Position numbers and translations under genes: made by a program. Positions 8,450 through 24,200 of a DNA stretch of 32,000 nt are shown in pieces. How positions within the stretch are numbered: the stretch's first letter is position 1; the number at the start of each line of letters is the position of its first letter. The stretch spans positions 1-32,000 of the forward strand of contig JAGVOT010000122.1 in the NCBI GenBank assembly GCA_020052615.1, written 5' to 3'. The notes beneath the pieces were generated by a model that made no database searches, was not told the origin of the DNA, and was given only the letters and a program-made list of their open reading frames with translations. The stretch comes from Nitrospirota bacterium. GTDB taxonomy: Bacteria; Nitrospirota; UBA9217.

Positions 8450-8566
8450 GTCATTGCGAGGAGCGCTTTCGCTAGCCTGCCCCGGCATGGTTCAAGCAGG
8501 GGCGGCAATCTTGCAGGTATGGATTTCTTTCAAGCCGAGATTGCTTCGCTTTGCTCGCAAAGACGG
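8450..8566. repeat. Candidate dispersed non-coding repeat with degenerate inverted ends
   Basis: Begins GTCATTGCGAGGAGCG... and ends GAGATTGCTTCGCTTTGCTCGCAAAGAC, which reverse-complements to GTCTTTGCGAGCAAAGCGAAGCAATCTC. Confidence 0.55.
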
Positions 8567-8642
8567 CAATAGGACCTATATCGTGACCTGCTGCACAATC
8601 GTGTTCCGTTGCGCGTTCGCTTTAAAGAGGTCCGATGAAAGG

Positions 8643-9428
8643 TCAGTTCAGGTCGGGATGGCATCTTCTGCAATCCTGGATGGGGAAGGCGACGGTGAGG
8701 TGGCAGACGCCGCAGAATTTACCATTCTTGATGTAGTCCATGCGAAAGTGCTTGGTCCCTTTTTTCTGGATATTGAAGATGTCGGGATGGCAGTCGGCGC
8801 AGTCGAGCCATTCGGTGTGCTTCTGATGGGGGAACGAAGCACGCGTCTTGACCATGCGCCATTCCGGTTCAAGGCGGAGGTTCTTGTCAAAAGGGAGGGA
8901 CTCAAAATCCGGATTGAAGAGGCTCTGTTTTGGCTTGATAAGGCCAATTTTCAGGGCCTTGACCCAGTTGATCCGGTCTCCATACCGGGCCCTGGGAAAA
9001 TCCTGCAGCTCTTTGAACCGCGCGTCCGAGGAACCGACGTTGCCCGTATGGCAGGTCTTGCAGGTTTGTTCCGTTATCCCGAAGGCGATCTTGCCGTTAT
9101 GACACGCCCCGCAGTATTCGCCTTTCCGGATCTTCGCATCGGTCATGTCCGTGGCGTTCGTCTTCATCGCGAAGTTCAGTTCGAAATGGCATACGCGGCA
9201 GGTGAAACGCCGCCGGTGGACCCAGTGGGAAAAGGCCACCGGCGGGTGGGTGCTGCTGAACGTGAGCCTGCTGATGAGGACATTCCCGTACTGCGAGGGA
9301 GGAAGGAGCGCGGGAAGGCTCCAGACCGTGTCGAACTGGGTCCCCCGCACCGGTTCCCTGCTGTCGCTCATGCAGGAAAACGAACTTCCCGCAAGCAACA
9401 GGGCAAGGACAATGACTATCGTTCGCAT
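8643..9428 (-). CDS. Hexahaem c-type cytochrome, exported (paralogue of the 9482-10273 product)
   Basis: Six CXXCH: CRVCH, CGACH, CKTCH, CADCH, CGVCH, CRRCH. N-terminus MRTIVIVLALLLAGSSFSC; start moved to the internal ATG at 9428, with an AGGAA-type SD just upstream on the minus strand. Confidence 0.9.
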   Translation of the reverse strand: MRTIVIVLALLLAGSSFSCMSDSREPVRGTQFDTVWSLPALLPPSQYGNVLISRLTFSSTHPPVAFSHWVHRRRFTCRVCHFELNFAMKTNATDMTDAKIRKGEYCGACHNGKIAFGITEQTCKTCHTGNVGSSDARFKELQDFPRARYGDRINWVKALKIGLIKPKQSLFNPDFESLPFDKNLRLEPEWRMVKTRASFPHQKHTEWLDCADCHPDIFNIQKKGTKHFRMDYIKNGKFCGVCHLTVAFPIQDCRRCHPDLN

Positions 9429-9481
9429 GCGTTCCTTTGTTCGTGAGACCGCCTCTTCATGCCCGGAGTGTCCCGAATGGA

Positions 9482-10273
9482 TCAATAGACCTCTTTCAGA
9501 TGACAGAGCTGACAGTCATAGAACGGGAACGCGACCTTGGCGTGACAGCTGCCGCAATACTTGCCGGCGAAGATGTCCTGCATATTGTACTTGGTGGCGC
9601 CCTTCTTGGCTCCGAAGATCTCGGGATGGCAGAGTTCGCATCCGTTGATGTCGGCGTGGATCTTGTGGGAGAAGATGATGTCCGGCATGCCGAGGATCGT
9701 GGACTTGATGTCGAAGTCCTTTGGCCGGGGAATGTCCTGCCGCTTGATGGAAATTCCTTCGACCTGGTCGCTGAGCTTGATGAGGTTCTTGTCAGCGGCC
9801 TTCATCCAGTCGACCCGGTTGCCGAACCGTGCCGGCGGGAAGCCCTTCAGGAATTCGTTGAAATCCTTCTGGTTCTTCACGTCCTTGCCGTAGGAGTGGC
9901 AGCGTTCGCAGTTCTGGACCTCGGTTACCAGCTTTTCCCGCGTTGTGGGACCGAAGGCCTCTTTGCCGTTATGGCAAGACCCGCAGTACAGGTGGTTCGT
10001 GTTGTCGGCTTCCCTGATATCGCTGCCGCCGGCCTCCATTGCGAATCCGAGATCGACATGGCAGACCCTGCAGGTGTATTTGGCCCGATGGATCCAGTGT
10101 TTGAATACGACCGGCGCGATGTTGTTCTTCTCGGAATAGTTATTGATGATGACATTGCCGAACTCTTCGGGCCGCGGCATTCTCTTCTTCGTGCCGAAGC
10201 TGCTGGTGGCGGCGATGCCTATGGATGCGAACACGAACAACAGTAGAGCGATGATCAGGACTTTGCGATTCAT
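9482..10273 (-). CDS. Hexahaem c-type cytochrome, exported
   Basis: Six CXXCH: CRVCH, CGSCH, CERCH, CELCH, CGSCH, CQLCH. Signal peptide MNRKVLIIALLLFVFASIGIAA. Confidence 0.92.
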   Translation of the reverse strand: MNRKVLIIALLLFVFASIGIAATSSFGTKKRMPRPEEFGNVIINNYSEKNNIAPVVFKHWIHRAKYTCRVCHVDLGFAMEAGGSDIREADNTNHLYCGSCHNGKEAFGPTTREKLVTEVQNCERCHSYGKDVKNQKDFNEFLKGFPPARFGNRVDWMKAADKNLIKLSDQVEGISIKRQDIPRPKDFDIKSTILGMPDIIFSHKIHADINGCELCHPEIFGAKKGATKYNMQDIFAGKYCGSCHAKVAFPFYDCQLCHLKEVY

Positions 10274-10412
10274 TTTGTGGTTCTCCTTCCTAATTGCCTA
10301 ATTGGTGCGGCGTGATAACGTGAACACGATCAATTGTCGGGCAGGACGCTGGGGCCCGGCGCGCAGACTCCCGTGATGCGGATACGAAAATGCCTTATGC
10401 TCCTTTAAAAGA

Positions 10413-10549
10413 TCTTTGACACTGAAGACCCTGAGAACGGCTATGATAACTGCGGATACATCGATTCATTATCATGCCTCTTCATAAGAAGTCATCCGCC
10501 ACTTCTGTGTCAAAGAATCCAGGATCCTGATTTTCTTTGACACGGAAGA
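10413..10549. promoter_or_regulatory. Three-copy motif TCTTTGACACNGAAGA (10413-10428 direct, 10503-10517 inverted, 10533-10549 direct) that could form alternative hairpins
   Basis: 10503-10517 TTCTGTGTCAAAGAA and 10533-10547 TTCTTTGACACGGAA are complementary with one mismatch over 15 nt; the loop contains the palindrome CAGGATCCTG. 10413-10428 TCTTTGACACTGAAGA is a further direct copy. Confidence 0.55.
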
Positions 10550-10551
10550 TA

Positions 10552-12012
10552 CTATCGATGGCAGTGCTGGCACAGATCGGCGGGCTTTTCCGCCTTATAC
10601 CGGAAAAGGCCTTTCCAGTCGGAGCTGTGCGCATTATGGCAGCTGATGCAGGCCATGGTCCTGTTGGCGCGTTTCGGATCGTCCACCTTGTCGATCGGAT
10701 GGCCGGATTTCCCGCCTTTCGGCTTTACCTTGATGTCGCCGGGAAGGGGCGTGTCCGGGTGCTGGCCGTTGAACGCGCTGCTGTGGCACTTCCGGCACAT
10801 GTCATTGCCTTCGGCTTTCGCGAGGCCCTTGAACGGAGAGGTATGGTTGCCGTGGCAATCGAAGCATCTGCCGTCGGCGACGGGTTTGTGCACATACTTG
10901 CCCGTGAACCCTTCCGTGCTGTGGCACGTATAGCAGAGGTCGGGGGACTTCCCGATGAGGAGCTTCTGGGACTGGCTCTGATGGGACGAGTGACAACTGC
11001 TGCACATGCCGATCTTGAAAGGACCGTGCTTTTCCCTGCCCATGAGCTCTTCGTTCATATGGCATTCAAAACAGAGCCCCGGGGTAGATTTGGTCAGCAG
11101 GAACTTTGATTTCGCATTATGCGCCTTGTGGCACGTGGTGCACCGTCCGCCTGCAACGGGCTTGTGGCCGTATTTGCCGCCGGTGAAGGATTTTTTATCG
11201 TGGCATTTATAGCAGAGCTCAGGCTGCTTTGCCTGCAGGAGCTTTTCCGTCCGGGACTGGTGCGAACTGTGACAGGACAGGCAATTTCCCTGGGCAACGG
11301 GTTCGTGAATGATACCGCTTGTGTATGCATTCTTGTCGTGGCAGGTGTAGCAGAGCCCCGGCGATTCCGCGACGAGGAGGTCCTTTGCATTCTGCGAATG
11401 GGGATTGTGGCAGGCGGTGCACTTGCCCGAAATGACCGGCTGGTGCTGCATCGCGGTCTTGTCGGCGATGCTCGCCCGGTCATGGCATCTGAAGCACAAC
11501 TCGGGCATGTTGAACGTCAGCAGCTTCTCATTGTTGTCCGAGCTGTGCGCGTCGTGGCAGAACCCGCACAGGGCGGCAGCGGTCGGGAAGTGGATGTTCT
11601 TCCTGGCCGAGATGTTCTTGTCGTGGCACTTGTAGCAGAGATCGGGCATGGCGGTGCTGAGCAGGCGGACGTTGTTGGAGGAATGCGGGTTGTGGCAGCC
11701 GGTGCATTTCCCCGTGGTTACCGGTTTGTGCTGGTAGCGCCTCAGGAACAGCGACCTGCTGTGGCAATCATAACAGAGGTCGGGCTGTTCGGACTTGAGG
11801 GAGAGAACGCCCTTGTTCGTGCCTCCCGCATGGGGCGCGACATGGCAGACACCGCAGCCTTTTTTCATGGCCCCGTGCAGCACCCTGCCTTTGCTCATTG
11901 CCTGGTGGCACTTGTTGCAGTCCTCATCGGCAGCGAAGGCGACCTCCGCGAACAGGAGCATTGCGGCAGCGCAGAGGAACGCTGATACTATCGGAAGGTT
12001 CTTGAAGTTCAT
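10552..12012 (-). CDS. Multihaem c-type cytochrome with 19 CXXCH motifs (doubled-CXXCH repeat type), exported
   Basis: Signal peptide MNFKNLPIVSAFLCAAAMLLFAEVAFA; 19 CXXCH counted, arranged in repeats of the form LCYxCHxxx...HxPVxxGxCxxCHxxHxS. The supplied ORF starts at a GTG (12033); ATG at 12012 gives a cleaner signal peptide. Confidence 0.95.
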   Translation of the reverse strand: MNFKNLPIVSAFLCAAAMLLFAEVAFAADEDCNKCHQAMSKGRVLHGAMKKGCGVCHVAPHAGGTNKGVLSLKSEQPDLCYDCHSRSLFLRRYQHKPVTTGKCTGCHNPHSSNNVRLLSTAMPDLCYKCHDKNISARKNIHFPTAAALCGFCHDAHSSDNNEKLLTFNMPELCFRCHDRASIADKTAMQHQPVISGKCTACHNPHSQNAKDLLVAESPGLCYTCHDKNAYTSGIIHEPVAQGNCLSCHSSHQSRTEKLLQAKQPELCYKCHDKKSFTGGKYGHKPVAGGRCTTCHKAHNAKSKFLLTKSTPGLCFECHMNEELMGREKHGPFKIGMCSSCHSSHQSQSQKLLIGKSPDLCYTCHSTEGFTGKYVHKPVADGRCFDCHGNHTSPFKGLAKAEGNDMCRKCHSSAFNGQHPDTPLPGDIKVKPKGGKSGHPIDKVDDPKRANRTMACISCHNAHSSDWKGLFRYKAEKPADLCQHCHR

Positions 12013-12054
12013 AGGTTTTGTCCGAAAAGCCACGAAAGTCTATCAGAATATACG

Positions 12055-12087
12055 AAAAAAATCAAATGGTTCGCCCGATCATTTGAT
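12055..12087 (-). terminator. Candidate rho-independent terminator overlapping the stop codon of the TPR gene
   Basis: Minus strand reads ATCAAATG-atcgggcgaac-CATTTGAT-TTTTTTCG: perfect 8-bp stem followed by a T run. Confidence 0.5.
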
Positions 12088-13377
12088 CTGCTTGATGAAC
12101 TGCTTCAACTCAGCGTCGTTGGGAGCTATCTTGAGCGCCCTTTCCCATGTCTCGCGGGCCTTGTCCTTCTTCCCGATCGCGTAGTAGCCCGAGCCCAGGC
12201 GTTTCCAGGCGAGAATATTGTCGGGCTGAAGTTCGATGACGATCGTGCACTCCTGGATCGCAAGGTCGTATCTTCCTTCATAGATGTGGTTCAAGGCGGC
12301 AAAGAGGTACTGGTCGACGATGTTCATGTCGCCGACCGGCGCTTCCATGGTGCTCAGGATCGACACATACTTGAGCTCAAGAAAGCCTTTGACGGCGATG
12401 GTGAGCGAGGACGGGTTCAGCTGGAATGCGTACCAGGCTCCCGCCATCGAAGCCTTGCGGTTGCCGTCAGCGGCGATATAGTTGCTCATTGCTTTCCGCA
12501 TCATGTCGCCGGCCTGGCCCTTTTCATCGATCCTGAGCGCGACCTTGACGACATCGTCGAGGCGAGAGAGCATGGTCTTGACATCGATATCGGTCGGGTT
12601 GTCGGAGAGGATCTTGTTGTAATAGTCCCGCGCGATGATGTAGTCGCCCCGCTCGTAGGCCTGCCTCGCTTCGGCGTAAGTCGTTCCCATCTTCTCTTTC
12701 ACAGCGGATGCGATATAGCGCGATGCGGCTTCCTGCGACCCGTCGATCTCCAGGATCTTCCTCCATTCGGCAATGGCAAGATCGTATTTCTTTTCCTTCA
12801 TGTATGCATCTGCCTGGTCGTAATGCTTCTTGGTGCGCACATCGACGACGTTGCTCTTTGCATTGTTGTACAGACTGCGGGCCTTGCCGTCATAGGGCCG
12901 GACCACGAGGATCTTTTCCAGCTCGTTCAATGCCGACTTGTAGTCGCCATCCTTGATGAACTGCTCGGCGTGCTGGTACATCTCGTTGGTGGTCTTGTCG
13001 GTGATGAGGTTCTTGGTGATGTCGATCAGGTTCGCGAAGCGCCGGTCATCGGGGTTCATCTTCAGAAGCTTGTCCCAGACCTCGATCGCCGCCGCGTAAT
13101 TCTCGTTCTGAAAGGCCTCGGCGGCGTCCTTGCAGAAGGGCTCCATGACCTGCTGTCTGGCGATGGCCTGGTACCGGGAAGCTGTCTTGTCAAAGGGATC
13201 GATCGCCAGGATCTCGTTCAGGAGCGGGCCCGCCTGATCGAACTTGCCCTCTTTGAAAAGGACGACGACCTCTTTCTTGAGCTGTTCGATCCGTTCAAGC
13301 TGCTTCGGTGTGACAGCGTCCGCCCCGGTTGCGACGGCGAGAACGAGTATTGTGATAAGTGTAAGGAAGTTTTTCAC
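12079..13377 (-). CDS. Exported TPR-repeat protein
   Basis: 432 aa; signal peptide MKNFLTLITILVLAVATGADA; repeated helical units such as DGDYKSALNELEKILVVRPYDGKA, KKYDLAIAEWRKILEIDG, RGDYIIARDYYNKILSDNPTD, EGRYDLAIQECTIVIELQPDNILAWKRLGSGYYAIGKKDKARETWERALKIAP. ATGA overlap with the upstream gene. Confidence 0.85.
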   Translation of the reverse strand: MKNFLTLITILVLAVATGADAVTPKQLERIEQLKKEVVVLFKEGKFDQAGPLLNEILAIDPFDKTASRYQAIARQQVMEPFCKDAAEAFQNENYAAAIEVWDKLLKMNPDDRRFANLIDITKNLITDKTTNEMYQHAEQFIKDGDYKSALNELEKILVVRPYDGKARSLYNNAKSNVVDVRTKKHYDQADAYMKEKKYDLAIAEWRKILEIDGSQEAASRYIASAVKEKMGTTYAEARQAYERGDYIIARDYYNKILSDNPTDIDVKTMLSRLDDVVKVALRIDEKGQAGDMMRKAMSNYIAADGNRKASMAGAWYAFQLNPSSLTIAVKGFLELKYVSILSTMEAPVGDMNIVDQYLFAALNHIYEGRYDLAIQECTIVIELQPDNILAWKRLGSGYYAIGKKDKARETWERALKIAPNDAELKQFIKQIK

Positions 13378-14039
13378 CCGTTTGCCCCTCTGACGATGGT
13401 GATTTCGATGCGCCGGTTCTTTGCCCGCTCTGCGTCGGTCTCGTTCGACGCAGCAGGCCTGAACTCTCCGAGCCCATGGGCGACAAGCCGCTCAGGGGCA
13501 ATGCCCTTGTTGATGAAATAGTAAATGACGCTGAAGGCCCTCGCAGACGACAGTTCCCAGTTTGAATCATACTGAGCGGTGTGTATGGGTATATTGTCCG
13601 TATGCCCTTCGGCGATGACCCTGTTGCTCATGGGTTTCAGCTGTCCGTGCAGATGTTCCAGAAAGGCCCCGATCCCCGGTTTCAGCTCGGCGCTGCCGCT
13701 GTCGAAGAGCGCAAAGCTCTCCATCTTGATCTTGATGTGGTGCGGGGTGATGACGAGCTGGATATTGTCGGTCATCCTGTTCTTTTCGATGAAGTCCCGG
13801 ATGTTCTGCGCCAGCGCGATCTCCTGTTTCATCTGCTTCACCCGCGGATCGTTCGGATTCGTCTCGGCAAGGTCGGAGAGCGCGGTCTCGTATTCCACGG
13901 AACCGGAATAGGAAAAGGCGTAGAACATGATGAAGAGGATGACCAGCGTGAGCATGAGGGTGCTGTAGGGCAGCATCCACAGCTCGGTCTCTTCCAGGTG
14001 CTCTTCGGTGTATTGTACGAACTTCCGGAGTACCGACAT
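13374..14039 (-). CDS. MotB/OmpA-like membrane protein lacking the canonical channel Asp
   Basis: N-terminal TM helix WMLPYSTLMLTLVILFIMFYAFS; OmpA-like domain FALFDSGSAELKPG...AEGHTDNIP...NWELSSARAFSVIYYF...KNRRIEITIV. Confidence 0.88.
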   Translation of the reverse strand: MSVLRKFVQYTEEHLEETELWMLPYSTLMLTLVILFIMFYAFSYSGSVEYETALSDLAETNPNDPRVKQMKQEIALAQNIRDFIEKNRMTDNIQLVITPHHIKIKMESFALFDSGSAELKPGIGAFLEHLHGQLKPMSNRVIAEGHTDNIPIHTAQYDSNWELSSARAFSVIYYFINKGIAPERLVAHGLGEFRPAASNETDAERAKNRRIEITIVRGANG

Positions 14040-14716
14040 TACAGCGTGCTCCTCGCCTGGCGGACCAGGGTGATTTCGATGCGCCGGTTCCGGGCCCGAT
14101 TCACGTCCGAGTCGTTGGGATATGCCGGGTGGAACTCACCGTACCCTGCTGCCACGAGCTGCCCGGGGTCCATGCCGGAGGCGGTGAAAAAATTGACGAC
14201 GCCGACAGCCCGTGCGATGGACAGTTCCCAGTTGGAACGGTACGCGCCTCCGCGGACCGGGATCGCGTCCGTGTGGCCTTCGATGATGATGTCGTTGGGG
14301 AACGCCTCGATCAATCCAACGAGGCTTTCCAGGACATTGACCGTGCCGGGATTGAGCCTGGCGCTTCCGATGGAAAAGAACGTTTCGGGATTCAGGGCGA
14401 TCTTGACGGTCTTGTCCGTTACCGCGATGGTCGCCTTCCCGGAAAGTTGCCCATCCGAGGCCGCCTGCTCGATGCGCTTGATCGCCGCTTCTTCCCTTGC
14501 CATCTTCGCCTGGCGCTCCAGTTCGGCCTGCTCCCGCGCCGATTGGTTGACCACCGTGCTTTCCATGCCGGCGACCACCATCTGCTTTTCCACGGCGGTC
14601 ATGCGCGTCATGGAGAACAGCATAAGGAAGAACAGCATGAGGTTGGTCGTAATATCGGAAAAGATGATCAGCCAGATATTGCCGAACTCTTTCCTTTTTT
14701 CAGTCTGTGCATGCAT
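14039..14716 (-). CDS. MotB/OmpA-like membrane protein retaining the channel Asp
   Basis: N-terminal TM helix WLIIFSDITTNLMLFFLMLFSM with Asp21 in the MotB position; OmpA-like domain FFSIGSARLNPG...IEGHTDAIPVRGG...SNWELSIARAVGVV...RNRRIEITLV. Confidence 0.9.
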   Translation of the reverse strand: MHAQTEKRKEFGNIWLIIFSDITTNLMLFFLMLFSMTRMTAVEKQMVVAGMESTVVNQSAREQAELERQAKMAREEAAIKRIEQAASDGQLSGKATIAVTDKTVKIALNPETFFSIGSARLNPGTVNVLESLVGLIEAFPNDIIIEGHTDAIPVRGGAYRSNWELSIARAVGVVNFFTASGMDPGQLVAAGYGEFHPAYPNDSDVNRARNRRIEITLVRQARSTL

Positions 14717-14748: not shown

Positions 14749-15519
14749 CTACTTCTGCCGAATATGCGCCATGATGAAAGCGGTCAGTTTCTTCCTCAGG
14801 ATGAGGGGGACGTCGCCCTGCTGGATCGACATGACGCCTTCAGCGATCATCTCCTTGCTGATGATGTCCCGCTCGCTGTGGTCGGTGAGCTTCGTCGCGA
14901 TCGGGATGAAGACGTTCGCCGAGAAGATCCCGTAAAAGGTCGCCGTGACGGCATTGGACATCGCGGCGCCCATGCTGGCGGGATTGGAAAGGTTCCTCAG
15001 CATTTCCACAATGCCCATGAGCGTGCCGAGAAGTCCGAAGATGGGGGCGACCGTGGCCATGGTCCGGAAGGCCCCTGAGACCTTTTGCTGATTGTGGCGG
15101 GTATAGAATATCTCGCGGCCGAGATTGTCCTTGATGACGTCGTGTTCAAGACCGTCAACGAGCATCTGGACGCCATGGACAAGGAATTTGTCCTCCATTT
15201 TCGGTATCTCGGCGGAAAGGGTCTCGATGCCGTCACGACGCGCCTTTTCGGCAAGCGAGGCAAGGTAATCGATCTTGTCCTCCATGTCCTTGTCGGAGTG
15301 CTTGCTGGGGAACAGCATGATGCGCAGGGACGGAATGATCTCCCGCACGACCGACCAGGGATAGGCTATCAGGGTAGCGCTGAACGTGCCGCCGTAGACA
15401 ATGACGAGCGCCAGGGGATTGAACAGCATGTGCAGGATGTTGCCTACCGCCAGAACATACAGGATCGTCAGCAGGATCGCGACGAGCCCGACAATTGTCA
15501 TTTTATCCATTTTTTCCAT
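14749..15519 (-). CDS. MotA-family stator-like proton channel protein
   Basis: MEKMDKMTIVGLVAILLTILYVLAVG..NPLALVIVYGGTFSATLIAYP; cytoplasmic EKARRDGIETLSAEI; VAPIFGLLGTLMGIVEML; TATFYGIFSANVFIPIATKL. Start placed at ATG 15519. Confidence 0.9.
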   Translation of the reverse strand: MEKMDKMTIVGLVAILLTILYVLAVGNILHMLFNPLALVIVYGGTFSATLIAYPWSVVREIIPSLRIMLFPSKHSDKDMEDKIDYLASLAEKARRDGIETLSAEIPKMEDKFLVHGVQMLVDGLEHDVIKDNLGREIFYTRHNQQKVSGAFRTMATVAPIFGLLGTLMGIVEMLRNLSNPASMGAAMSNAVTATFYGIFSANVFIPIATKLTDHSERDIISKEMIAEGVMSIQQGDVPLILRKKLTAFIMAHIRQK

Positions 15520-15520
15520 G

Positions 15521-16942
15521 TTAGTTGTTTTCAACCTCCACAAGGCCTTCGTTGATCAGGCGGCGTACCACGACCATCAGGTTCTGTTTCTCCCGCCGGA
15601 GACGTGTTGCTGAGAGGGGACGGCTGAATTCCATCTCCTGCTTGAGCCGCTCGGCGGCACCGGCGCTCAAGGATGAGAGGACCTTCTGCTGGATGTCCTC
15701 GGAAGAGGTCTTCAGGATCTGGGCGAAGAGCGCGGCCTCGACGTTCCGGGTGAGCGTCTGGATGCCCTGTGCCGGAAGGTCGCGGATGATGTTCTCCAGG
15801 CTCCTGATGCGCTGCTTCAGGCGCGCGGCGGTGGGGGCGTCCTTCGCCTCGAGCGTCTTGACGATCTTCTCGCGGACCTCCTCGTTGGTCATATCGAGCA
15901 GCGTGACCAGCTTGTTTTCGCCGCCCACGACGTAGGTGAGCTTGTTCTTGACCATCTCTTCGAGGGCGGTAACCTTCTCGACGCTGATCTCTTCCTTGCC
16001 GAGGGATATCGCGACCTCGACCTGCTTCTCCTTCGGGAAAAGCTCGAGGAACCGCATGGCAAGGACGGGGTCAAGGTAGTTTGTCACGATCGCAATGTCC
16101 TGCGCCGCCTTGTCCTTCAGGAGGAACGCGAGGCCAGGGAGGTCGCGCTCGCGAACGAAGGAGAAGGGAAGCCCCGCTTCCTGCGCGGAGACGGCTGCGG
16201 CGGCCGCAACCGCGCTGCCTGCCATGACCTCCCGCTCATAGGTCGAGGTATGCTCCACGTTGACGGTCTGTGCCGTAGCACCTCCGCCCCGGATGGCGCT
16301 CCAGTCGATCTCCTTGAGGGCCGGGATCACTTTCTTAAGCGGATCCATCAGGAACAGTCCGGCCATGACCATCATGAAGCCGCCAACGATGGTCAGGATC
16401 AGCCACAGGAAGTTCGGAAGTGCGAAGAGCGTTCGGAAAAAGCCCTTTGATTCGAAGTCAACTTTCTTTACGTTGATCTGGTCGCCCCGGGTCTGGCTGA
16501 ATCCGATCACGTTCTTCGCCATGTCCTCGATAAGTTCCACGATCGACCCCGGAACGCTGCTGTCGATCCAGATGGAAAGGGTGATCTTGTTGACCCGGTA
16601 CTTGCTGCTCCCGGCGCCGAACAACATCTCGGACTGCCCGGCGCCGAACTCCTTCTTTTGCGGAACGCCGGGGAGCACCAGCGCGTTCGTCTTCTTTTTT
16701 TCGAGAAGCTGGTCGCTGCCGCCTCGCGCGGACACCAGCTCGGCATTCACAAAGATGACGACCTTGTCCGTACCGGTTATTTCCTGGATGACCTGTTTGA
16801 GCTTGCGTTCAAGCTGGCTCTCCAGGGAGATCTTGAGAGCATAATCATCATTTACCTCGGCGTGCGACACCGGGACGGCCGTGAGAAGAATAAACATGAC
16901 GAGAAGAAGCAGGAGTGGACTGCGAGTGATTGTTCGAACCAT
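15521..16942 (-). CDS. Exported/membrane FliF(C-terminal)-FliG(M+C) fusion protein
   Basis: Signal peptide MVRTITRSPLLLLLVMFILLTAVPVSHA; FliF/YscJ C-terminal-like segment (LESQLERKLKQVIQEITGTDKVVIFVNAEL...LPGVPQKK...YRVNKITLSIWIDSS...IVELIEDMAKNVIGFSQTRGDQINVKKVDF); TM FLWLILTIVGGFMMVMAGLFLM; then FliG-like PFSFVRERDLPGLAFLLKDKAAQDIAIVTNYLDP...VGGENKLVTLLDM...IRSLENIIRDLPAQGIQTLTRNVEAALFAQILKTSSEDIQQKVLSSLSAGAAERLKQEME...VVVRRLINEGLVEV. Confidence 0.88.
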   Translation of the reverse strand: MVRTITRSPLLLLLVMFILLTAVPVSHAEVNDDYALKISLESQLERKLKQVIQEITGTDKVVIFVNAELVSARGGSDQLLEKKKTNALVLPGVPQKKEFGAGQSEMLFGAGSSKYRVNKITLSIWIDSSVPGSIVELIEDMAKNVIGFSQTRGDQINVKKVDFESKGFFRTLFALPNFLWLILTIVGGFMMVMAGLFLMDPLKKVIPALKEIDWSAIRGGGATAQTVNVEHTSTYEREVMAGSAVAAAAAVSAQEAGLPFSFVRERDLPGLAFLLKDKAAQDIAIVTNYLDPVLAMRFLELFPKEKQVEVAISLGKEEISVEKVTALEEMVKNKLTYVVGGENKLVTLLDMTNEEVREKIVKTLEAKDAPTAARLKQRIRSLENIIRDLPAQGIQTLTRNVEAALFAQILKTSSEDIQQKVLSSLSAGAAERLKQEMEFSRPLSATRLRREKQNLMVVVRRLINEGLVEVENN

Positions 16943-17232
16943 GTTTGTATCCCCTATTAAATTAATTATTGAAAATGGAACGATGTCGGCAAGGGCGATT
17001 GTCGATCAAGCGTCAATTTTGCAACCAGAATATCGATGCAATATATGTACCTGTAGTTTCACACTAATAATTGTTGGATGTGATATTCAAGTATGTGAAA
17101 AATAAGAATTAATTAAAAAATAATTTGCGCCTCTATGGGATTTAACAAATATTTAACCGAGCGAATGTGCTCACCCGGTGCTTGTTAGTGCTCTCTAATG
17201 TTTACGAGTAAGCGTCCCAAATTAGCACAGTG

Positions 17233-17381: not shown

Positions 17382-19022
17382 ATGAAAAAAATAGCGATGA
17401 TCGTTATGGGTTTGTTCATTCTGTTGACCGTCGGCGGCGCAAATGCAGCGACAAGCAGGAAGGCAACTCCCAAGGACAAGGCGCCGGCAGTCAAGGACAG
17501 GAGCGCGGCGGGTGCTCCCGCAAAAGCGGAGAAGACGTCTGTGCCTCTCAACGAGCGTTATACCGACAAGGGCGACGGCACGATCCTTGACAAGAACACC
17601 GGCCTGATCTGGCTCAAAGATGCCAATATCAGCAATCTGCCCCTGCCCGGCGAGGGCGCAAAGCAGTATCTTCAGGAAATGAACAGCGGAAAAAAACCGA
17701 ATTTCGGCTACTCCGATTGGCGCCTGCCGACCATCAATGAGATCGAGACGCTCGTGGAGAAATCCCGGTTCTATCCGGCGCTTCCGGTCGGCCACCCGTT
17801 CACGAATGTGCAGAACCATTTCTACTGGTCGTCGTCGACGGGGAAAGATGTTCTCGATTACGTATGGATCGTGGACCTGGCATCGGGCGAGATGACCATG
17901 GACTATGTTTCCTATTGCAGTTACAAGTTCCTCTGGCCGGTCAGGAGCAGCTGGATGCCGACGACCGCCAAGGCGAGCACCGTCATGACCGGCGGCCTGA
18001 ACGAATTCGGCCAGCTCGGCGACGGCTCCACGGGGGACCGGGACGCATTCCTGCCGGTAAGCGGCCTGGAGAACGTGGTCAAGGTCTCCGCGGGCCTTGA
18101 ACATGCCGTGGCGCTCAAGTCAGACGGGTCTGTTTGGACGTGGGGACGGAACAACCGGGGCCAGCTGGGGAACGGCACCGTCGAAGACAGCCGGGTGCCG
18201 GTCGCTGCCAAGGACCTCTGGAGGATCACCGATGTCGCGGCGGGCATGTTCCATACGCTCGCACTTGCGTCCGATGGAACGGTCTGGGCCTGGGGGCGTA
18301 ATTCCTACGGACAGCTCGGGAACGGATCCAACGAGGACAGCATAACACCGGTGCGGGTCAGCGGTCTGTCGGGCGTCGTGAAGATCTCCGCGGGGATGTA
18401 TCACTCGGTCGCGGTCAGGTCCGACGGATCGGTCCATGCCTGGGGCAGGAACGTGTACGGTCAGCTTGGCGACGGCTCGAACAAGGACCGGAACAGTGCA
18501 GGTCAGGTTTCCGGGATATCGGGAGCCGTGAACGTCACTGCGGGGCTTCATCATACGGTGGTCCTGAGATCCGATAAGACCGTCTGGGCATGGGGCTGGA
18601 ATATCAACGGCATGCTCGGTGACGGGACGGGAACCGATCAGTTCAAGCCGGTGCAGGTCAAGGGCCTTGCCGACATCGTGGACATCCAGGCGGGACTGCA
18701 TCACACCATTGCGCTCAGGTCCGATGGGAGCGTCTGGACATGGGGGGGGAACGAATACAGCCAGCTTGGCAACAAGTCGGCAAGCGGATCAACGGCGATC
18801 AAGATCGATGGCTTGGGGAACATCAAGAAGGTATCGGCGGGAATGTACCACTCCATCGCTGTGATGACGGACGGTACGATCTGGGTATGGGGCAAGGACC
18901 TGAAGAACCAGCCGTTGAAACCCTATCCCGTACGGATATGGGATGTTGCCGGGATAAACGATGTCGCTGCCGGACGGTTCTATACGGTCGTGTTGAGCGG
19001 CGGAAAATCTGCCGTGCAGTGA
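17382..19022 (+). CDS. Exported protein with N-terminal DUF1566-like domain fused to a 7-repeat RCC1-type beta-propeller
   Basis: Signal peptide MKKIAMIVMGLFILLTVGGANA; YTDKGDGTILDKNTGLIWLKDA...GYSDWRLPTINEIETLV...HFYWSSS..YVWIVDLASGEM...FLWPVR; seven units of the type VSAGxxHxVALxSDGSVWTWGxNxxGQLGxG. SD GGGAAGGGA upstream. Confidence 0.92.
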   Translation: MKKIAMIVMGLFILLTVGGANAATSRKATPKDKAPAVKDRSAAGAPAKAEKTSVPLNERYTDKGDGTILDKNTGLIWLKDANISNLPLPGEGAKQYLQEMNSGKKPNFGYSDWRLPTINEIETLVEKSRFYPALPVGHPFTNVQNHFYWSSSTGKDVLDYVWIVDLASGEMTMDYVSYCSYKFLWPVRSSWMPTTAKASTVMTGGLNEFGQLGDGSTGDRDAFLPVSGLENVVKVSAGLEHAVALKSDGSVWTWGRNNRGQLGNGTVEDSRVPVAAKDLWRITDVAAGMFHTLALASDGTVWAWGRNSYGQLGNGSNEDSITPVRVSGLSGVVKISAGMYHSVAVRSDGSVHAWGRNVYGQLGDGSNKDRNSAGQVSGISGAVNVTAGLHHTVVLRSDKTVWAWGWNINGMLGDGTGTDQFKPVQVKGLADIVDIQAGLHHTIALRSDGSVWTWGGNEYSQLGNKSASGSTAIKIDGLGNIKKVSAGMYHSIAVMTDGTIWVWGKDLKNQPLKPYPVRIWDVAGINDVAAGRFYTVVLSGGKSAVQ

Positions 19023-19601: not shown

Positions 19602-19723
19602 ATTAGTTCATAAAATCATGTAGTTATGCTTGATATCCCTATGTTGCAGGAGGCATGTTTATTGCAATTAAATGATAACTACCTGTTGTTATTTCACCTT
19701 GAACATCAAGGAGTTAAACGAAT

Positions 19724-21079
19724 ATGAGGAAACAAAATGCGTTGGGAACGATCTCTCTGGTAGGATTGATCGGATTCCTGCTCATCATTTTTGCTTTTCC
19801 CGGCCATGGCACGTCCCAGACGCCGGCTCCTGCTTCGGAGAGCTGCGTCAGCGCAAATTGTCACGTCACCATGGGCAAGGAGAAGGTCGTCCATAATCCC
19901 GTAAAGGAAGGCATGTGCACGACCTGCCATCTTGCCGCGGATGATCCTCTCAAGAAGACCAGGCATCCAGGCAATCTTGTCATCTCCCTCGTGCAGCCGG
20001 TGGCGGACCTTTGCACAATGTGTCATGAGCCAAAGAACAAGAAAAAGGTCGTCCATGCGCCGATCCAGGGGGGGGATTGTACGTCCTGTCATAACCCTCA
20101 TCAGTCGCCGAACAAAGGCATGCTGAAGGACGTCATGCCGAATATCTGTTTTCAGTGTCATCCGGACAGCATGGTGAAGCATGCCGTCATGCACCCGCCG
20201 GTGGCGGGAGGGGATTGCTCGGGTTGTCATGACAATCATCAGAGCGATTTTCCCAAACGGCTGGTCAATGAGGGGAACGCCCTCTGTTTCCAGTGTCATC
20301 CCGATAAGGAAGAGGGCCTCAAGACCAGGAAGGTAGCCCACTATCCCGTCAAGCAGTCCTGCACCCAGTGCCACAATCCCCATGGATCGTCCGCGAAGGC
20401 CATGCTCACCGCACCGGTACCGGAGCTTTGTTCAACCTGTCATCCGAACGAAGTGATGCTGCGTCAACGGGCCGCCACCAAGCACGGGCCCATGGCCGAT
20501 CAAAAGAGCTGCCGCATCTGTCATGATCCGCATTTCTCCGATCAGCCGCGGCTTCTCGTCACCTCGCAGATGGCGCTGTGTCTTGCCTGTCATGACAAGG
20601 AGCTCGAGACCGGCAAGGGCAAGGTCATGAACATGAAGGCGTTTCTCGAGGCGAACAAGAACACCCATGGCCCTCTGAAGGGCGACGATTGTGTTTCATG
20701 CCATAATCCGCACGGCTCGGACTACTGGAGGATCCTGGTGAAGTATTATCCCCCGGATTTCTATGCGTCCTACTCCGAGGGGAAGTATGCACTGTGTTTC
20801 TCCTGCCACGATAAGGCGGCATTCACGGAGCGGCGCACGAAAACGGCCACGGGCTTCCGTGATGGTGAACAGAACCTCCATTTCGTTCACGTGAACAAGG
20901 TCAACAAGGGGAGGACGTGCAAAGCCTGTCACGAGGTGCACGCGGACAGCGGACAGAATGCACATGTGAAACAATTCGTTGGATTCAGCGGGTGGGCGAT
21001 GCCCATGAACTTCACGCAGGGCAAGGACGGCGGGACCTGTGCGCCGGGGTGTCATGGGGAAAAACGGTACAACAGGTAA
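19724..21079 (+). CDS. Multihaem c-type cytochrome: 13 CX2CH plus one CX4CH and one CX3CH
   Basis: N-terminal hydrophobic segment LGTISLVGLIGFLLIIFAF; first motif CVSANCH (CX4CH), last motif CAPGCH (CX3CH), 13 canonical CXXCH between them (CTTCH, CTMCH, CTSCH, CFQCH, CSGCH, CFQCH, CTQCH, CSTCH, CRICH, CLACH, CVSCH, CFSCH, CKACH). Confidence 0.94.
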   Translation: MRKQNALGTISLVGLIGFLLIIFAFPGHGTSQTPAPASESCVSANCHVTMGKEKVVHNPVKEGMCTTCHLAADDPLKKTRHPGNLVISLVQPVADLCTMCHEPKNKKKVVHAPIQGGDCTSCHNPHQSPNKGMLKDVMPNICFQCHPDSMVKHAVMHPPVAGGDCSGCHDNHQSDFPKRLVNEGNALCFQCHPDKEEGLKTRKVAHYPVKQSCTQCHNPHGSSAKAMLTAPVPELCSTCHPNEVMLRQRAATKHGPMADQKSCRICHDPHFSDQPRLLVTSQMALCLACHDKELETGKGKVMNMKAFLEANKNTHGPLKGDDCVSCHNPHGSDYWRILVKYYPPDFYASYSEGKYALCFSCHDKAAFTERRTKTATGFRDGEQNLHFVHVNKVNKGRTCKACHEVHADSGQNAHVKQFVGFSGWAMPMNFTQGKDGGTCAPGCHGEKRYNR

Positions 21080-21162
21080 ACGGCGTTTGGCGGTCCTGTC
21101 CAGGCAGGAAAGAATACGTGGGTCCTAATAACAGCGCAGCAGACCGATGTCGGGGGAATAAT

Positions 21163-23124
21163 TTGAACAGACCATGGTCAATCATGATGGCGGCGGCAAT
21201 TGCGCTTACCGTTATCCTCATTGCGTATTCATTCTCGGCGGCCCAACCGGCGACATCACCCTCGATCTCGATCCTGTATCCGAAGCATAATGCCCTGGTC
21301 GGGAAAAAGGTCAATCTCGTCGTTGACCCGGCGACCGACTGGACAGCGGCTCCTTTTCTTCAGGTCGTGGTGGGCAACACCGAATACCCGGTGATCGACA
21401 CATCCGCCGGCCGTCATGCAGTTCAGGGTCTTTCTCTGGAGACGGGATCCAATACGATAACGGTCAGGGTGCTCGCCGTTGTTCCCGGTCCGGATCAGGC
21501 AAAGGGAAACAACCGGGAACAAGAGCAAGCAAAGGATTCTGCGAAAAAGAAGTATACCCAGGTCCTGTCGCGCTCGATTACGGTCTTTAACCGGGAGGGC
21601 AGCTTTGCGACCACTCCGCCGCAATTCACGGCACAACACTTCCATTCACGGGAGCAGGAAGGCGAGTGCTCGGGGTGTCACCGTCTTGAGGCCGAACCGA
21701 AGGATCTCAAGCCGGCGAAGCCTGAAGAGATGCTCTGTTATGCCTGCCACCGCGAGATCCCGACCGGCAGGCACATCCATGGGCCGACGGCGGTCTGGAA
21801 CTGCCTGTCATGCCATAACACCGAGATCTATCCGGTGAAGTACCAGTTCATATCCTACAATCCATGGACGGTCACCAAAACGACGCAGTCCGTGGAGCCT
21901 GCCGTGTTCACCTTGTCCTCTGACGTTCTTTTCAAACCCAAATCGGCCCTGTTCGTGAGCGAAACGTCAACACTTCAGCTCAGCAAGAAAGATCGGAAGA
22001 ACAAAAAGAAGCTTGAGGAGTTTAACAGGGCAAAGGCGGCGGAACTGGCATTAAAGCGCGAACAACAGCGGGAACTTTTTAAGGATTTTCTTGAATTCAT
22101 CAAATTGAATCCAGCGGACAAGATACTGGTCGAGGCCCATGTAGATTCCGGCCATTTTCCGCCCGCAAAAGGGAAGGCGAAGGGATTCAAGAACGATGTG
22201 CAACTGACCGCGGCGCGGGCAAAGGCCCTTGTAAAACTGCTGAAGCATTATGGTGTCGCCGGGAAGAACCGCGTTGCGGCCGCCGGCATGGGCAGCACCC
22301 TGCCGAAGGCGCCCAATACGAGCAAAGAGGGAAGGGAATTGAACAATCGTATTGAGATCGTCGTCTATCCGCCGGACGTCAAGATCAAGAACAGCATGAA
22401 ACTTCCCGTCCTCAAAGACCGGGAGCGGGTGGTCGTAACCATGAGTTATCAGCGGGGTGCCGAGGTCGGAAAACTGGCGGTCACGGAACACCTCCCGAAG
22501 GGATTTCTCTATATGCAGGGGAGCGGGGTATTTCGCGGCGCCATTAAGAACCCGCAGGTCAAAGGAAGCGATCTGACCTGGCAGCTCGGGAATTTCGGCA
22601 CGAATTTCCAGGAGACCCTGTCATTCATCGTTAAAAAAGGGAAAGAGGTCACCGCTCCGTTAAGCCCGGTCGTGAATCTCTCGTTCAAGATCGGTCAAAA
22701 GGACGAGCGATTGACGTTCGATCCGGAAAAGCCGTTCAAACCCGGCCTTACCGTCAAAGAGACCTGCGAAAAGTGCCACATGAGCCTGCTTGCATATCCC
22801 GTCAAGCATGGTCCCGCTGAAGCGGGTCACTGCACGCTTTGCCATGATCCCCATGCCAGCAAGTACCCTTCATGGACCCGTAACCAGTCCTGGCGCCTGT
22901 GCACGACCTGCCACGCTGAGAAAAAGACCGGTGTGCACCTGATCGCGGGCTTTGTTCATGGGGTCTCCCATCCCACGAAAAAATGGCCCGATCCATCACG
23001 GCCGGGAAAGCGCCTCACCTGCGTGAGCTGTCATTCACCGCACAGCTCTCAAACGAAGGAACTCATGGCTTTCGACGTCCGGAACAAATATGAGTCGTGC
23101 AGATATTGCCACGCCCAAAAGTGA
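21163..23124 (+). CDS. Octahaem c-type cytochrome with internal OmpA-like peptidoglycan-binding domain and a DUF11-like beta domain
   Basis: TTG start at 21163 (MNRPWSIMMAAAIALTVILIAYSFSAAQ) behind a GGGGGA SD. CXXCH: CSGCH, CYACH, CLSCH, then OmpA-like domain (FLEFIKLNPADKILVEAHVDSG...NDVQLTAARAKALVKLLKHYGV...NRVAAAGMGSTLP...NNRIEIVVYPP), then DUF11-like LAVTEHLPKGFLYMQGSGVF..., then CEKCH, CTLCH, CTTCH, CVSCH, CRYCH. The supplied ORF upstream of the TTG overlaps the 19724-21079 CDS out of frame. Confidence 0.88.
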   Translation: MNRPWSIMMAAAIALTVILIAYSFSAAQPATSPSISILYPKHNALVGKKVNLVVDPATDWTAAPFLQVVVGNTEYPVIDTSAGRHAVQGLSLETGSNTITVRVLAVVPGPDQAKGNNREQEQAKDSAKKKYTQVLSRSITVFNREGSFATTPPQFTAQHFHSREQEGECSGCHRLEAEPKDLKPAKPEEMLCYACHREIPTGRHIHGPTAVWNCLSCHNTEIYPVKYQFISYNPWTVTKTTQSVEPAVFTLSSDVLFKPKSALFVSETSTLQLSKKDRKNKKKLEEFNRAKAAELALKREQQRELFKDFLEFIKLNPADKILVEAHVDSGHFPPAKGKAKGFKNDVQLTAARAKALVKLLKHYGVAGKNRVAAAGMGSTLPKAPNTSKEGRELNNRIEIVVYPPDVKIKNSMKLPVLKDRERVVVTMSYQRGAEVGKLAVTEHLPKGFLYMQGSGVFRGAIKNPQVKGSDLTWQLGNFGTNFQETLSFIVKKGKEVTAPLSPVVNLSFKIGQKDERLTFDPEKPFKPGLTVKETCEKCHMSLLAYPVKHGPAEAGHCTLCHDPHASKYPSWTRNQSWRLCTTCHAEKKTGVHLIAGFVHGVSHPTKKWPDPSRPGKRLTCVSCHSPHSSQTKELMAFDVRNKYESCRYCHAQK

Positions 23125-23192: not shown

Positions 23193-24200
23193 ATGCTCAG
23201 CTGCCGATTACTCATAACGACCCTGCTCATTGCGGTGAGCAGCGCTGGTTGTGCCTTTATTGCCGGCCAGGACGACCCCGGCGCGCCCGGCGAGGGCGTT
23301 AAACACATCCGGCTCAATTATGTCGAGACGCTGAGGAACCAGGCCAGCCTTCGCGGAGAAGGCTTCCTTGACGTTGTTCACACGGCGGGCACTCCGACGA
23401 CCCTCCAGCGGCCCAACAGCGTGTTCGCCGACGCGTTCCGCGTCTATGTGACCGATCAGGCGCAGCCGCCCCGGGTCTTCATCTTCGACCGTGGCGACCG
23501 CACGGCGAGCATCCTTGCCGTCCCCGTCCCGCCCGCCGCAGGATCGCTCGTGAATCCGCTGGGCATTGCGGTGGACATCGACGGCGTCATCTACGTCGCC
23601 GATGCTCAACAGGGAAAGGTATTCGGCTACGACAGGAACGGGGCGCTGCTCCTGACGTTCGGGAAAACCGGCGACCTTGCTTATCCGACGGGAATTGCCA
23701 TCGATAAAAGAAGGAATCGCATCCATATTGCGGATTCCCATGCGCATTTGGTCAAGACCTTTACGATACTGGGAGAACGGCTTTTTGAGATCGGCGTGGC
23801 GGGTCCCGCCGACCAGCGGCCAAAGTCTCCGGCCGGGATCGCCCTCGACGGGGAGGGGAGGATCCACGTTCTCGACAGCCGGTCCCGACGCGTGTTGATC
23901 TATGATCCCGAAGGCAGGTTCATGAGGTCGTTCCCCCTGTCTCGCGGCGGCGCCGGCGACTCGGTGAAGCCCGGGGGGATCGCTGTGGACTCGGCGGGAC
24001 ATATCTATGTGACGGACAGCGTCAATAACAATATCCTCATCTTCGAGTCCGACGGCAGTTTTTTAAGAACTTGGGGCAAAACCGGGAACTTGAAGGGTGA
24101 TTTCTGGTCGCCCCAGGGTCTGTTCATTGACGAACGCGACATGCTCTATGTTGCAGATCAAACCAACAGCCGTGTCCAAGTCTATCAATTCATAAAATGA
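23193..24200 (+). CDS. NHL-repeat (beta-propeller) lipoprotein
   Basis: Lipobox VSSAGC; repeats PNSVFADAFRVYVTD, NPLGIAVDIDGVIYVADAQQGKVFGYD, KPGGIAVDSAGHIYVTDSVNNNILIFESDGSFLRTWG, SPQGLFIDERDMLYVADQTNSRVQVYQFIK. Confidence 0.9.
   Translation: MLSCRLLITTLLIAVSSAGCAFIAGQDDPGAPGEGVKHIRLNYVETLRNQASLRGEGFLDVVHTAGTPTTLQRPNSVFADAFRVYVTDQAQPPRVFIFDRGDRTASILAVPVPPAAGSLVNPLGIAVDIDGVIYVADAQQGKVFGYDRNGALLLTFGKTGDLAYPTGIAIDKRRNRIHIADSHAHLVKTFTILGERLFEIGVAGPADQRPKSPAGIALDGEGRIHVLDSRSRRVLIYDPEGRFMRSFPLSRGGAGDSVKPGGIAVDSAGHIYVTDSVNNNILIFESDGSFLRTWGKTGNLKGDFWSPQGLFIDERDMLYVADQTNSRVQVYQFIK

Follow-up and report, generated by a model that had tools for sequence, protein, structure and literature searches.

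The stretch of DNA considered here, referred to as the window, comprises 32,000 nucleotides (nt; positions 1 to 32,000 of the forward strand) of contig JAGVOT010000122.1 from assembly GCA_020052615.1 of a Nitrospirota bacterium. The minus strand of this window carries a gene (15521-16942) for a protein in which the C-terminal part of FliF, namely its third ring-building motif (RBM3) and second transmembrane (TM) helix, is joined in a single chain to the middle and C-terminal domains of FliG. This FliF(RBM3)-TM-FliG(MC) fusion was recognised from its open reading frame (ORF), Pfam and PDB matches, an AlphaFold2 (AF2) model, Foldseek searches, homologues and the ratio of nonsynonymous to synonymous substitution rates (dN/dS). 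The fusion gene heads a tightly packed operon with genes for a MotA protein, two MotB paralogues and a periplasmic tetratricopeptide repeat (TPR) protein, all on the minus strand.

Directly downstream of the fusion gene lies the gene for a MotA-type stator A subunit (14749-15510), which encodes 253 amino acids (aa) from an MDKM start and matches Pfam MotA_N and MotA_ExbB as well as MotA structures in the PDB. The longest ORF for this subunit begins with a TTG at 15543 and shares 23 nt with the fusion gene. The start at the MDKM methionine (15510), used by homologues and by the gene calls of related loci, leaves a gap of 10 nt between the two genes. Next come the first MotB paralogue (MotB1; 14039-14716), identified through Pfam (MotB_plug, OmpA), the PDB and alignment as having a plug, a TM helix with the proton-binding Asp (FSDITTN) and an OmpA-like peptidoglycan-binding domain, and the second MotB paralogue (MotB2; 13374-14039), for which Pfam gives the same architecture and in which Thr takes the place of the channel Asp (PYSTLML). 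The genes for MotB1 and MotB2 overlap by 1 nt. The fifth gene of the cassette (12079-13377), whose start overlaps the stop of the second motB by 4 nt, encodes an exported TPR protein of 432 aa with a signal-like N-terminus, no lipobox and matches to TPR families in Pfam. A PDB sequence search with the TPR protein gave no informative match.

Domain architecture of the fusion protein

The fusion gene is an ORF of 473 aa with an ATG start. The source gene call (P0001, 458 aa) places the start of this protein 15 codons too far downstream, by which most of the signal peptide is lost. The protein begins with a signal peptide and an RBM3-like domain that bears a short collar insert; a single TM helix and a disordered linker then lead to FliG_M and FliG_C. 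In Pfam, YscJ_FliF_C is matched at aa 113-163 (E 2.7e-6) over profile positions 93-147 of 147, which is only the last third of the model, and is followed by FliG_M (aa 271-338, E 2.4e-6) and FliG_C (aa 363-468, E 4.8e-18). No Pfam match to FliG_N or to YscJ_FliF (RBM1/RBM2, PF01514), the part of FliF in which the export gate is housed, was found in the fusion protein, and its mature periplasmic part is just ~140 aa long. The NCBIfam models give the same picture: fliG (TIGR00207) aligns from model position 110 onward only and scores 80.7 bits against a cut-off of 226.7, and FliF (TIGR00206) scores 25.9 bits against a cut-off of 129.75.

The hydropathy profile contains two hydrophobic segments only, at aa 1-31 and ~168-202. 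The first corresponds to a predicted signal peptide (aa 1-28; 16859-16942), modelled by AF2 as a helix at aa 2-21, for which cleavage is predicted at VSHA/EVND. The predicted mature N-terminus, AEVNDDYALKISLE, is near-invariant across the family, whereas the leader varies. The second corresponds to a single TM helix (aa 172-199; 16346-16429), the equivalent of FliF TM2, which lies within an AF2 helix at aa 177-210 and is followed by the Lys-rich DPLKKVIPALK. A flexible linker (aa 200-258; 16169-16345), predicted to be cytoplasmic, comes after it. This linker is Ala/Gly-rich and variable in the family alignment, has the highest dN/dS of the gene, and shows a predicted local distance difference test score (pLDDT) below 50 at aa 219-255. 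The chain runs from the TM helix via this disordered linker straight into FliG_M, and there is no FliF-type tail for the non-covalent binding of FliG_N. By sequence, the covalent link between C-terminal FliF (RBM3 and TM2) and FliG_MC stands in for the interface between the FliF tail and FliG_N. The AF2 monomer of the whole protein (pLDDT 67-68) consists of an alpha/beta periplasmic fold, a long TM helix, the disordered linker and the FliG helices.

An earlier reading made from the sequence alone (the sequence-only reading) had proposed most of this architecture, and it holds. The signal peptide is borne out by the hydrophobic aa 1-31, the AF2 helix and the variable leader before a conserved mature start; the presence of only a C-terminal FliF-like segment with one TM helix by the Pfam match to YscJ_FliF_C alone, the two hydrophobic segments and the Foldseek matches to RBM3; and the FliG middle and C-terminal domains without FliG_N by Pfam, the NCBIfam alignment from position 110 and the PDB alignment. 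The direct passage from TM helix through disordered linker to FliG_M also agrees with its suggestion that the fusion replaces the FliG_N/FliF tail interface.

The periplasmic RBM3-like ring-building domain (aa 29-165; 16448-16858) was identified from AF2, Foldseek and alignment with true FliF. Its modelled secondary structure is an alpha helix (32-56), a beta strand (61-71), an insert, a second beta strand (115-127), an alpha helix (132-146) and a third beta strand (155-161). When the isolated domain was compared with the PDB using Foldseek, the top 18 matches were all FliF RBM3/S-ring structures (E 2e-6 to 3e-5, TMq 0.52-0.61), and the FliF S-ring entries matched are 33- to 35-mers; PrgK and EscJ gave weak matches that rank below the FliF structures. 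The insert between the first two strands (aa 72-114; 16601-16729), with an LPGVP motif at aa 90-94, is equivalent to a short collar. In an alignment with three true FliFs, this insert of ~43 aa stands at the same place as their insert of ~90 aa, which we take, from published FliF structures, to be the beta-collar. Its P91-G92 is present in 92/92 sequences, including the three true FliFs, and aligns with the FliF 'xPGx'. A C-terminal G(Y/F)xxxRGD motif (GYDxxRGD, with RGD at aa 152-154) is also common to the periplasmic domain and true FliF. An RBM3 with an insert at the collar position followed by TM2, the arrangement that marks FliF, is found in the fusion protein by Pfam, AF2, Foldseek and motifs alike. 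Judging from sequence and model, the periplasmic domain is a FliF RBM3 with a half-length collar, and it is predicted to form a ring.

On the cytoplasmic side, a phmmer search against the PDB aligned aa 259-468 with the FliG_MC of Thermotoga maritima (3ajc, 1lkv; E ~1e-18). By their E values and the Foldseek result, such matches lie well outside what chance would give. The FliG middle domain (aa 259-339; 15926-16168), supported by Pfam FliG_M, this alignment and family statistics, starts at a conserved PFSF. The positions of the FliM-contact motif EHPQ read K278-A279-A280-Q281, and the equivalent of R160 is Ser. Across 92 relatives, the eight residues listed as most common at the His position of EHPQR do not include His, and the residue at the Arg position varies. 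IRSL stands at the MFXF hinge; the Gly-Gly linker is intact. The Gly-Gly linker (aa 340-341) and the FliG C-terminal domain together span aa 340-473 (15524-15925); the latter is matched by Pfam FliG_C and by FliG in Foldseek (E 2e-9). FliG and MgtE_N, a domain of Mg2+ channels, have a known fold relationship. An MgtE-type transporter was rejected, as the only sign of it is a weak MgtE_N match (aa 381-438, E 6e-6), with no CBS or MgtE membrane domain, against a FliG_C match at 4.8e-18. The AF2 model of FliG_MC (15524-16168) is closer to clockwise Salmonella FliG structures (8wiw, 8umx, 8vib; root-mean-square deviation 5.4-6.5 A) than to counter-clockwise ones (14-15 A), a likeness that may be an accident of modelling.

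Torque helix, stators and a candidate promoter

The torque helix of FliG_C lies at aa 426-437 (15632-15667) and reads, in the alignment with T. maritima FliG, S-A-G428-A-A-E431-R432-L-K434-Q435-E436-M. At the five classical charged positions, K264 corresponds to Lys, R281 to G428, D288 to Q435, D289 to E436 and R297 to S444. G428, R432 and E436 are invariant among 38 close homologues. In the wide family (n=92), the D289-equivalent is Glu in 77/92 and the R281-equivalent is Gly in 73/92. The D288 position holds Glu or Gln in most family members, and T. maritima FliG itself has Glu at the D289 position. The torque helix has thus kept, and not lost, its acidic end in the family. The residue list and the loss of the EHPQ motif given in the sequence-only reading come out identically in the PDB alignment; a relocation of EHPQR or of the charged residues to other positions was not what this alignment gave, since it confirms KAAQ and the listed substitutions. 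Its view that the torque residues are altered needs dividing: R281 and R297 are indeed replaced, whereas the acidic D288/D289 end is retained as Gln/Glu and Glu.

The stator subunits were compared with this helix. In the flagellar motor, MotA R90 is paired with FliG D289 and MotA E98 with FliG R281, as stated in PMC7564593. The MotA R90-equivalent is basic in 7/7 cassettes examined, and the E98-equivalent is Ser in the MotA of the window and acidic in 2/7. Of the two pairs, R90/D289 is present on MotA and FliG alike, whereas R281/E98 is for the most part missing from both. Such a pattern would be expected of a working, simplified rotor-stator contact, and the torque interface is accordingly read from these residues as reduced or simplified, not lost or degraded. 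The conserved E436 together with the basic MotA position favours a rotor over a mere scaffold.

The stator proteins themselves appear, by sequence comparison, to be of the flagellar MotA/MotB type and not of the ExbB, TolQ or ZorA type. The best PDB matches of MotA are the flagellar MotA structures 9lu9 (4e-41) and 6ysl (2e-37), and its channel prolines P167 and P214 are invariant in the aligned cassettes; the NCBIfam MotA equivalog scores are all under the cut-off. The best PDB match of MotB1 is the MotB 6ysf (3e-37). With its plug, channel Asp and peptidoglycan-binding domain, this subunit has everything that marks a MotB, and it is predicted to conduct protons. The change of the channel Asp to Thr in the second MotB is seen in 6/6 Nitrospirota-type loci and also in L030 (related loci are numbered with the prefix L). 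In distant cassettes, the Asp of the second MotB is retained in L024, L027 and L029, and L028 has Asn. As two MotB genes are present in the distant cassettes too, the paralogue pair is old and the loss of the Asp lineage-specific. In the Nitrospirota lineage, the Thr would imply a stator axle that is a heterodimer and has one protonatable Asp only.

A candidate sigma-54 promoter, AGGTAC-N5-TTGCA (AGGTACATATATTGCA; 17037-17052, minus strand), was found as a pattern match ~95-110 nt upstream of the start of the fusion gene. The same box is present at -101 to -131 in L008, L013, L014 and L017, against 0.17 expected per region, and is thereby conserved in position in five loci; across the window, the number of such matches is not above chance. 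A second box of the GG-N10-GC sigma-54 type, AGGCATGTTTATTGCA, lies at 19651-19666 on the plus strand upstream of a cytochrome gene at 19724. The window also encodes a sigma-54 response regulator (6840-8207) and a histidine kinase (5338-6834), which are syntenic in relatives. The sensor of this kinase is of the class-40H methyl-accepting chemotaxis protein type, and the same type is found in a GGDEF diguanylate cyclase at 27700-29340 on the plus strand.

Family, distribution and neighbouring genes

There are 81 close homologues of the fusion protein, of ~470 aa, and the two that are named come from Nitrospirota/Nitrospiraceae metagenome-assembled genomes. The 16 loci from GTDB genomes all bear Nitrospirota or Nitrospiria names but one, 'Bacterium BMS3Bbin05'. 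A profile of the periplasmic domain searched against 1.84 billion representatives matched 311 clusters at 50% identity, 84 of them at E<=1e-10, and named members include Elusimicrobiota and Endomicrobiales. Almost all members of this family are 430-700 aa long with the domain at ~30-170, and a few are true FliFs, matched near 350-430. Among 92 scanned members, FliG_C was found in 88, FliG_M in 85 and FliG_N in 17, and three were true FliFs. Two further profile homologue searches added no new taxa. Compared pairwise with five relatives, the fusion gene has a dN/dS of 0.08-0.26, and in 5/5 comparisons the TM and linker segment exceeds the periplasmic and FliG regions. Such values indicate a maintained gene and not a relic.

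The five-gene cassette recurs in Nitrospirota and Elusimicrobiota. The order fusion-MotA-MotB-MotB-TPR, at 25-45% identity, was found in nine related loci (L001, L002, L003, L005, L006, L024, L027, L028 and L030), and a TPR gene follows the second MotB directly in 10/13 contexts. Variants of this order also occur: in L029 the place of the TPR protein is taken by a histidine kinase and a 1248-aa Kelch propeller, L026 has one MotB, and in L025 TPR repeats are fused to the rotor protein itself. Neither FliM, FliN nor any other flagellar family was found in the 12 annotated related loci or among the window ORFs of at least 150 aa, so that this negative applies to the loci only.

In the Nitrospirota loci, several neighbours of the cassette are conserved as well. 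A divergent gene on the plus strand (17382-19022) encodes an exported Lcl_C and RCC1 beta-propeller protein, assigned by Pfam, and a gene of this type stands at the same position in L001, L005-L010, L013-L015, L017, L019 and L021-L023; a small exported protein is another of the Nitrospirota neighbours. Directly downstream of the cassette, three multihaem c-type cytochromes are encoded on the minus strand (8643-12033), as found by Pfam, NCBIfam and counts of haem motifs. These are a cytochrome with 19 CXXCH (10552-12033), a c7-type cytochrome with 6 CXXCH (9482-10273), and another c7-type cytochrome of 280 aa with 6 CXXCH (8643-9485), which is 36% identical to the preceding one. The three are present in the same order in most Nitrospirota loci and are lineage-specific conserved neighbours, possibly belonging to the same operon. 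A plus-strand ORF of 332 aa at 8448-9446, with no Pfam match and no haem motif, overlaps the last of them; given the 6 CXXCH of the minus-strand ORF and its 36% identity to the neighbour, the latter ORF is taken as the real gene, and the one on the plus strand is almost certainly its antisense shadow.

The operon lies within a larger island of multihaem cytochromes (8643-12033 on the minus strand and 19724-23124 on the plus strand), which is conserved in most Nitrospirota loci. Its members are the 19-CXXCH protein, the two hexahaem c7-type proteins with a 'nanowire_3heme' domain, a 13-CXXCH protein and an 8-CXXCH protein with an OmpA-like domain. Two NHL beta-propellers are encoded after the island, at 23193-25231.

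In other loci the company of the cassette is of another kind. At L001 (11146-17594) and L002 (14936-21401), at 42-43% identity, a PilC/GspF-like platform protein and five or six pseudopilins (N_methyl/GspH) are encoded right after the cassette, and no assembly ATPase is visible in the stretches examined at these two loci. This type IV pilus-like linkage is seen at L001 and L002 only and is absent from the window. The Elusimicrobiota-type neighbours include a protein of ~640 aa, FecR and CARDB proteins, and giant fn3/CarboxypepD_reg proteins of 2,900-5,200 aa. PDB sequence searches with the 643-aa protein of L028 and an 824-aa protein of L026 gave nothing informative. Beside distant cassettes, giant proteins are encoded of 16,931 aa at L026 (1-8090), of 2,892 and 5,243 aa at L027 (1-2810, 19261-21500) and of 2,988 aa at L028 (1-7379). 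They are accompanied by FecR-domain and CARDB proteins in L027 and L028, and by PorV-like (UPF0164) barrels and PilZ in L026. By analogy, the distant cassettes beside giant proteins recall systems in which a motor is combined with a giant adhesin.

A possible rotary machine outside the flagellum

The sequence-only reading concluded that the protein is a rotor-like or scaffold element without a switch and not a standard flagellar switch protein, which fits the domain, motif and operon evidence, with the rotor favoured. That reading had not linked the gene to its operon of MotA, two MotB and TPR genes or to its broad family outside the flagellum, and it is this link that gives the protein its significance. 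On balance, it seems probable that the fusion protein is the switchless ring rotor of a non-flagellar machine, turned by proton-driven stators and driving some process of the cell envelope. For this machine we infer ring formation, rotation, a scaffold role for the TPR protein and the nature of the output. The N-terminus would be exported, and the RBM3-like domain with its short collar insert would oligomerise into a periplasmic ring similar to the S-ring. Each subunit would cross the inner membrane with one TM helix, and the flexible linker would hold a ring of FliG_M and FliG_C beneath the membrane. Stators of the MotA5-MotB2 type, encoded by the next three genes, would be anchored to peptidoglycan by their OmpA-like domains, and the TPR protein, a possible periplasmic scaffold by analogy with known systems, would probably position them. 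The stators would let protons through and, as they turn, act on the FliG torque helix; what is kept from the flagellar motor is the contact of the basic R90-equivalent of MotA with Glu436. As FliG_N, EHPQR and FliM/FliN are missing, there would be no chemotaxis switch and rotation would be one-way; as RBM1/RBM2, export gate, rod and hook are missing too, the output would not be a flagellum. It may rather be a periplasmic or envelope process that differs between lineages.

Several points weigh against a ring rotor. Two of the five classical charged torque residues, R281 and R297, are gone from the fusion protein. The AF2 model is a monomer with a moderate pLDDT, in which the collar insert (73-113) is unmodelled at a pLDDT below 50. 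In flagella, the contacts of the FliG ring are buttressed by FliM and FliN, which have no gene at the cassette loci. The neighbouring genes vary by lineage, from cytochromes and pseudopilins to giant proteins and Kelch/RCC1 propellers. Finally, the MotA of L026 (P0169) keeps E98 while the FliG part is without R281, so co-variation is imperfect, and a strict co-variation of FliG R281 with MotA E98 was rejected on the grounds of this locus.

The main rival explanation is a force transducer similar to TonB or TolA, without a large ring. The fusion protein would then act as a monomer or small oligomer whose FliG_C is gripped by a single MotA5B2, with motion passed via the TM helix to the periplasmic domain, which would act on the TPR protein or on a propeller partner. 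An adaptor of this kind would fit the length and disorder of the linker (aa 219-255), the variability of the envelope neighbours and the lack of the buttressing FliM and FliN, and every other known non-flagellar 5:2 motor is coupled to a transducer and not to a large ring (list in PMC12204202). However, the periplasmic domain corresponds to RBM3, the very part of FliF that builds the ring, and carries an insert of the collar type and FliF motifs; the S-rings that it matched are 33- to 35-mers. In addition, known transducers bind the motor by a TM helix at the edge of the pentamer and not by a FliG torque helix, and this explanation is regarded as rather unlikely.

The fusion protein could also belong to a normal flagellum whose genes lie elsewhere in the genome. 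It would then serve as an accessory or alternative rotor subunit, a second FliG-like protein in or near the MS/C-ring with its own stators. Some bacteria have multiple FliG or stator paralogues. The stators of the cassette are of the flagellar type, many family members carry the source annotation 'flagellar motor switch protein FliG', and the gene-context evidence covers the cassette loci and not the rest of the Nitrospirota genomes, a point that also counts against the ring rotor. Nevertheless, such a role is improbable, because the protein lacks both FliG_N, which docks on FliF, and EHPQR, which binds FliM, brings its own RBM3 and TM helix, and has no linked flagellar gene in 13 contexts, and because Elusimicrobiota, among which relatives are found, have been reported to carry fliG and motAB homologues while being without flagellar structural genes (10.1101/2022.07.08.499144). 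Least credible of all is that the genes have no rotor function and are either the decaying remains of a flagellum or an anti-phage module of the Zorya kind, derived from MotAB homologues: the degenerate FliM-binding and hinge motifs, the MotB2 channel Asp that is gone in the Nitrospirota lineage and the matches of the MotB proteins to ZorB models in PADLOC would be in keeping with it, but dN/dS values of 0.08-0.26 and the conservation of length, motifs and gene order across phyla rule out a pseudogene or relic, while PADLOC, which gave no match to ZorC, ZorD, ZorE or the long-tailed ZorA and none of any kind for MotA and the fusion protein, speaks against a Zorya defence system and leaves the ZorB matches to general MotB homology.

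The ring rotor can be set beside several known systems. With the flagellar FliF MS-ring and FliG, the cassette shares the RBM3 with a collar-type insert, TM2, FliG_MC, the Gly-Gly linker, the torque helix and the adjoining genes of the MotA/MotB type. It differs from flagellar FliF in having a signal peptide in place of RBM1, RBM2 and TM1 and a collar of about half the length. In addition, a flexible linker takes the place of the FliF tail and FliG_N, and EHPQR, MFXF, R281 and R297 are lost. Unlike in the flagellum, no genes for FliM/FliN, export apparatus, rod, hook or filament lie near the cassette. FliF-FliG fusions have been engineered in Salmonella and Vibrio (PDB 8z4d/8z4g; PMC11481574, PMC6079021), whereas the present one is natural.

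The proposed use of a MotA/MotB-family proton motor for an envelope function is shared with GldLM, AglRQS, SiiAB, TolQR, ExbBD and ZorAB. GldLM is the motor of gliding and the type IX secretion system, and SiiAB serves the type I secretion of the giant adhesin SiiE. Cassette relatives near giant surface proteins, PorV-like barrels and pseudopilins recall SprB with GldLM and SiiE with SiiAB, and AglRQS of Myxococcus gliding has, like the cassette, two different B-type subunits. These motors, however, have no FliG/FliF rotor and are coupled by the periplasmic part of the B subunit or by a transducer of the TonB/TolA type; among the non-flagellar 5:2 motors, the cassette stands apart in that its stators are nearest to true flagellar MotA/MotB and its coupling partner is a FliG domain. 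MotA/TPR/OmpA envelope proteins of Fibrobacter (PMC4619616) were considered and set aside as being of the ExbBD/TonB type, with FliG unmentioned. An exported TPR protein encoded with MotB-type stators is also found in PflA/PflB of Campylobacter and Helicobacter and in the collar TPR proteins of spirochaetes (PMC12054838, PMC7990780). The likeness to these scaffolds is limited to generic TPR repeats, and a scaffold role would be by analogy.

The searched literature knows FliG and the FliF S-ring as flagellar parts only, and all the non-flagellar MotAB-family motors that it describes do without them. No natural FliF-FliG fusion or non-flagellar FliG-MotAB machine was described in this literature, apart from an aside in the preprint on Elusimicrobiota, and the list of 5:2-motor functions contains no FliF-FliG cassette (PMC12204202). 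This points to a previously undescribed flagellar rotor-stator core outside the flagellum, and there is a substantial chance that the cassette deserves the name of a new machine class. A wider proposal is more tentative. The cassette may be a free-standing ion-driven rotary engine, consisting of a minimal RBM3/FliG ring and MotAB-type stators without type III export apparatus, rod or filament, that is widespread in uncultured Nitrospirota, Elusimicrobiota and other lineages. Different lineages would use it for the movement, assembly or secretion of envelope components such as multihaem cytochromes, pseudopili or giant adhesins. As to its origin, it would be a flagellar motor reduced to its core or else a surviving relative of a rotor-stator module older than the acquisition of the export apparatus by the flagellum.

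If the ring rotor is real, it would represent a new use of the torque-generating core of the flagellum and, with five genes, a far simpler system for the study of how 5:2 stators turn a ring. It would also provide a handle on the old question of whether the flagellar rotor-stator module and the type III export apparatus arose separately. In Nitrospirota the cassette is linked to cytochromes of the extracellular-electron-transfer type, and in other lineages to giant surface proteins. These links suggest that the envelopes of uncultured bacteria have a mechanics still to be explored.

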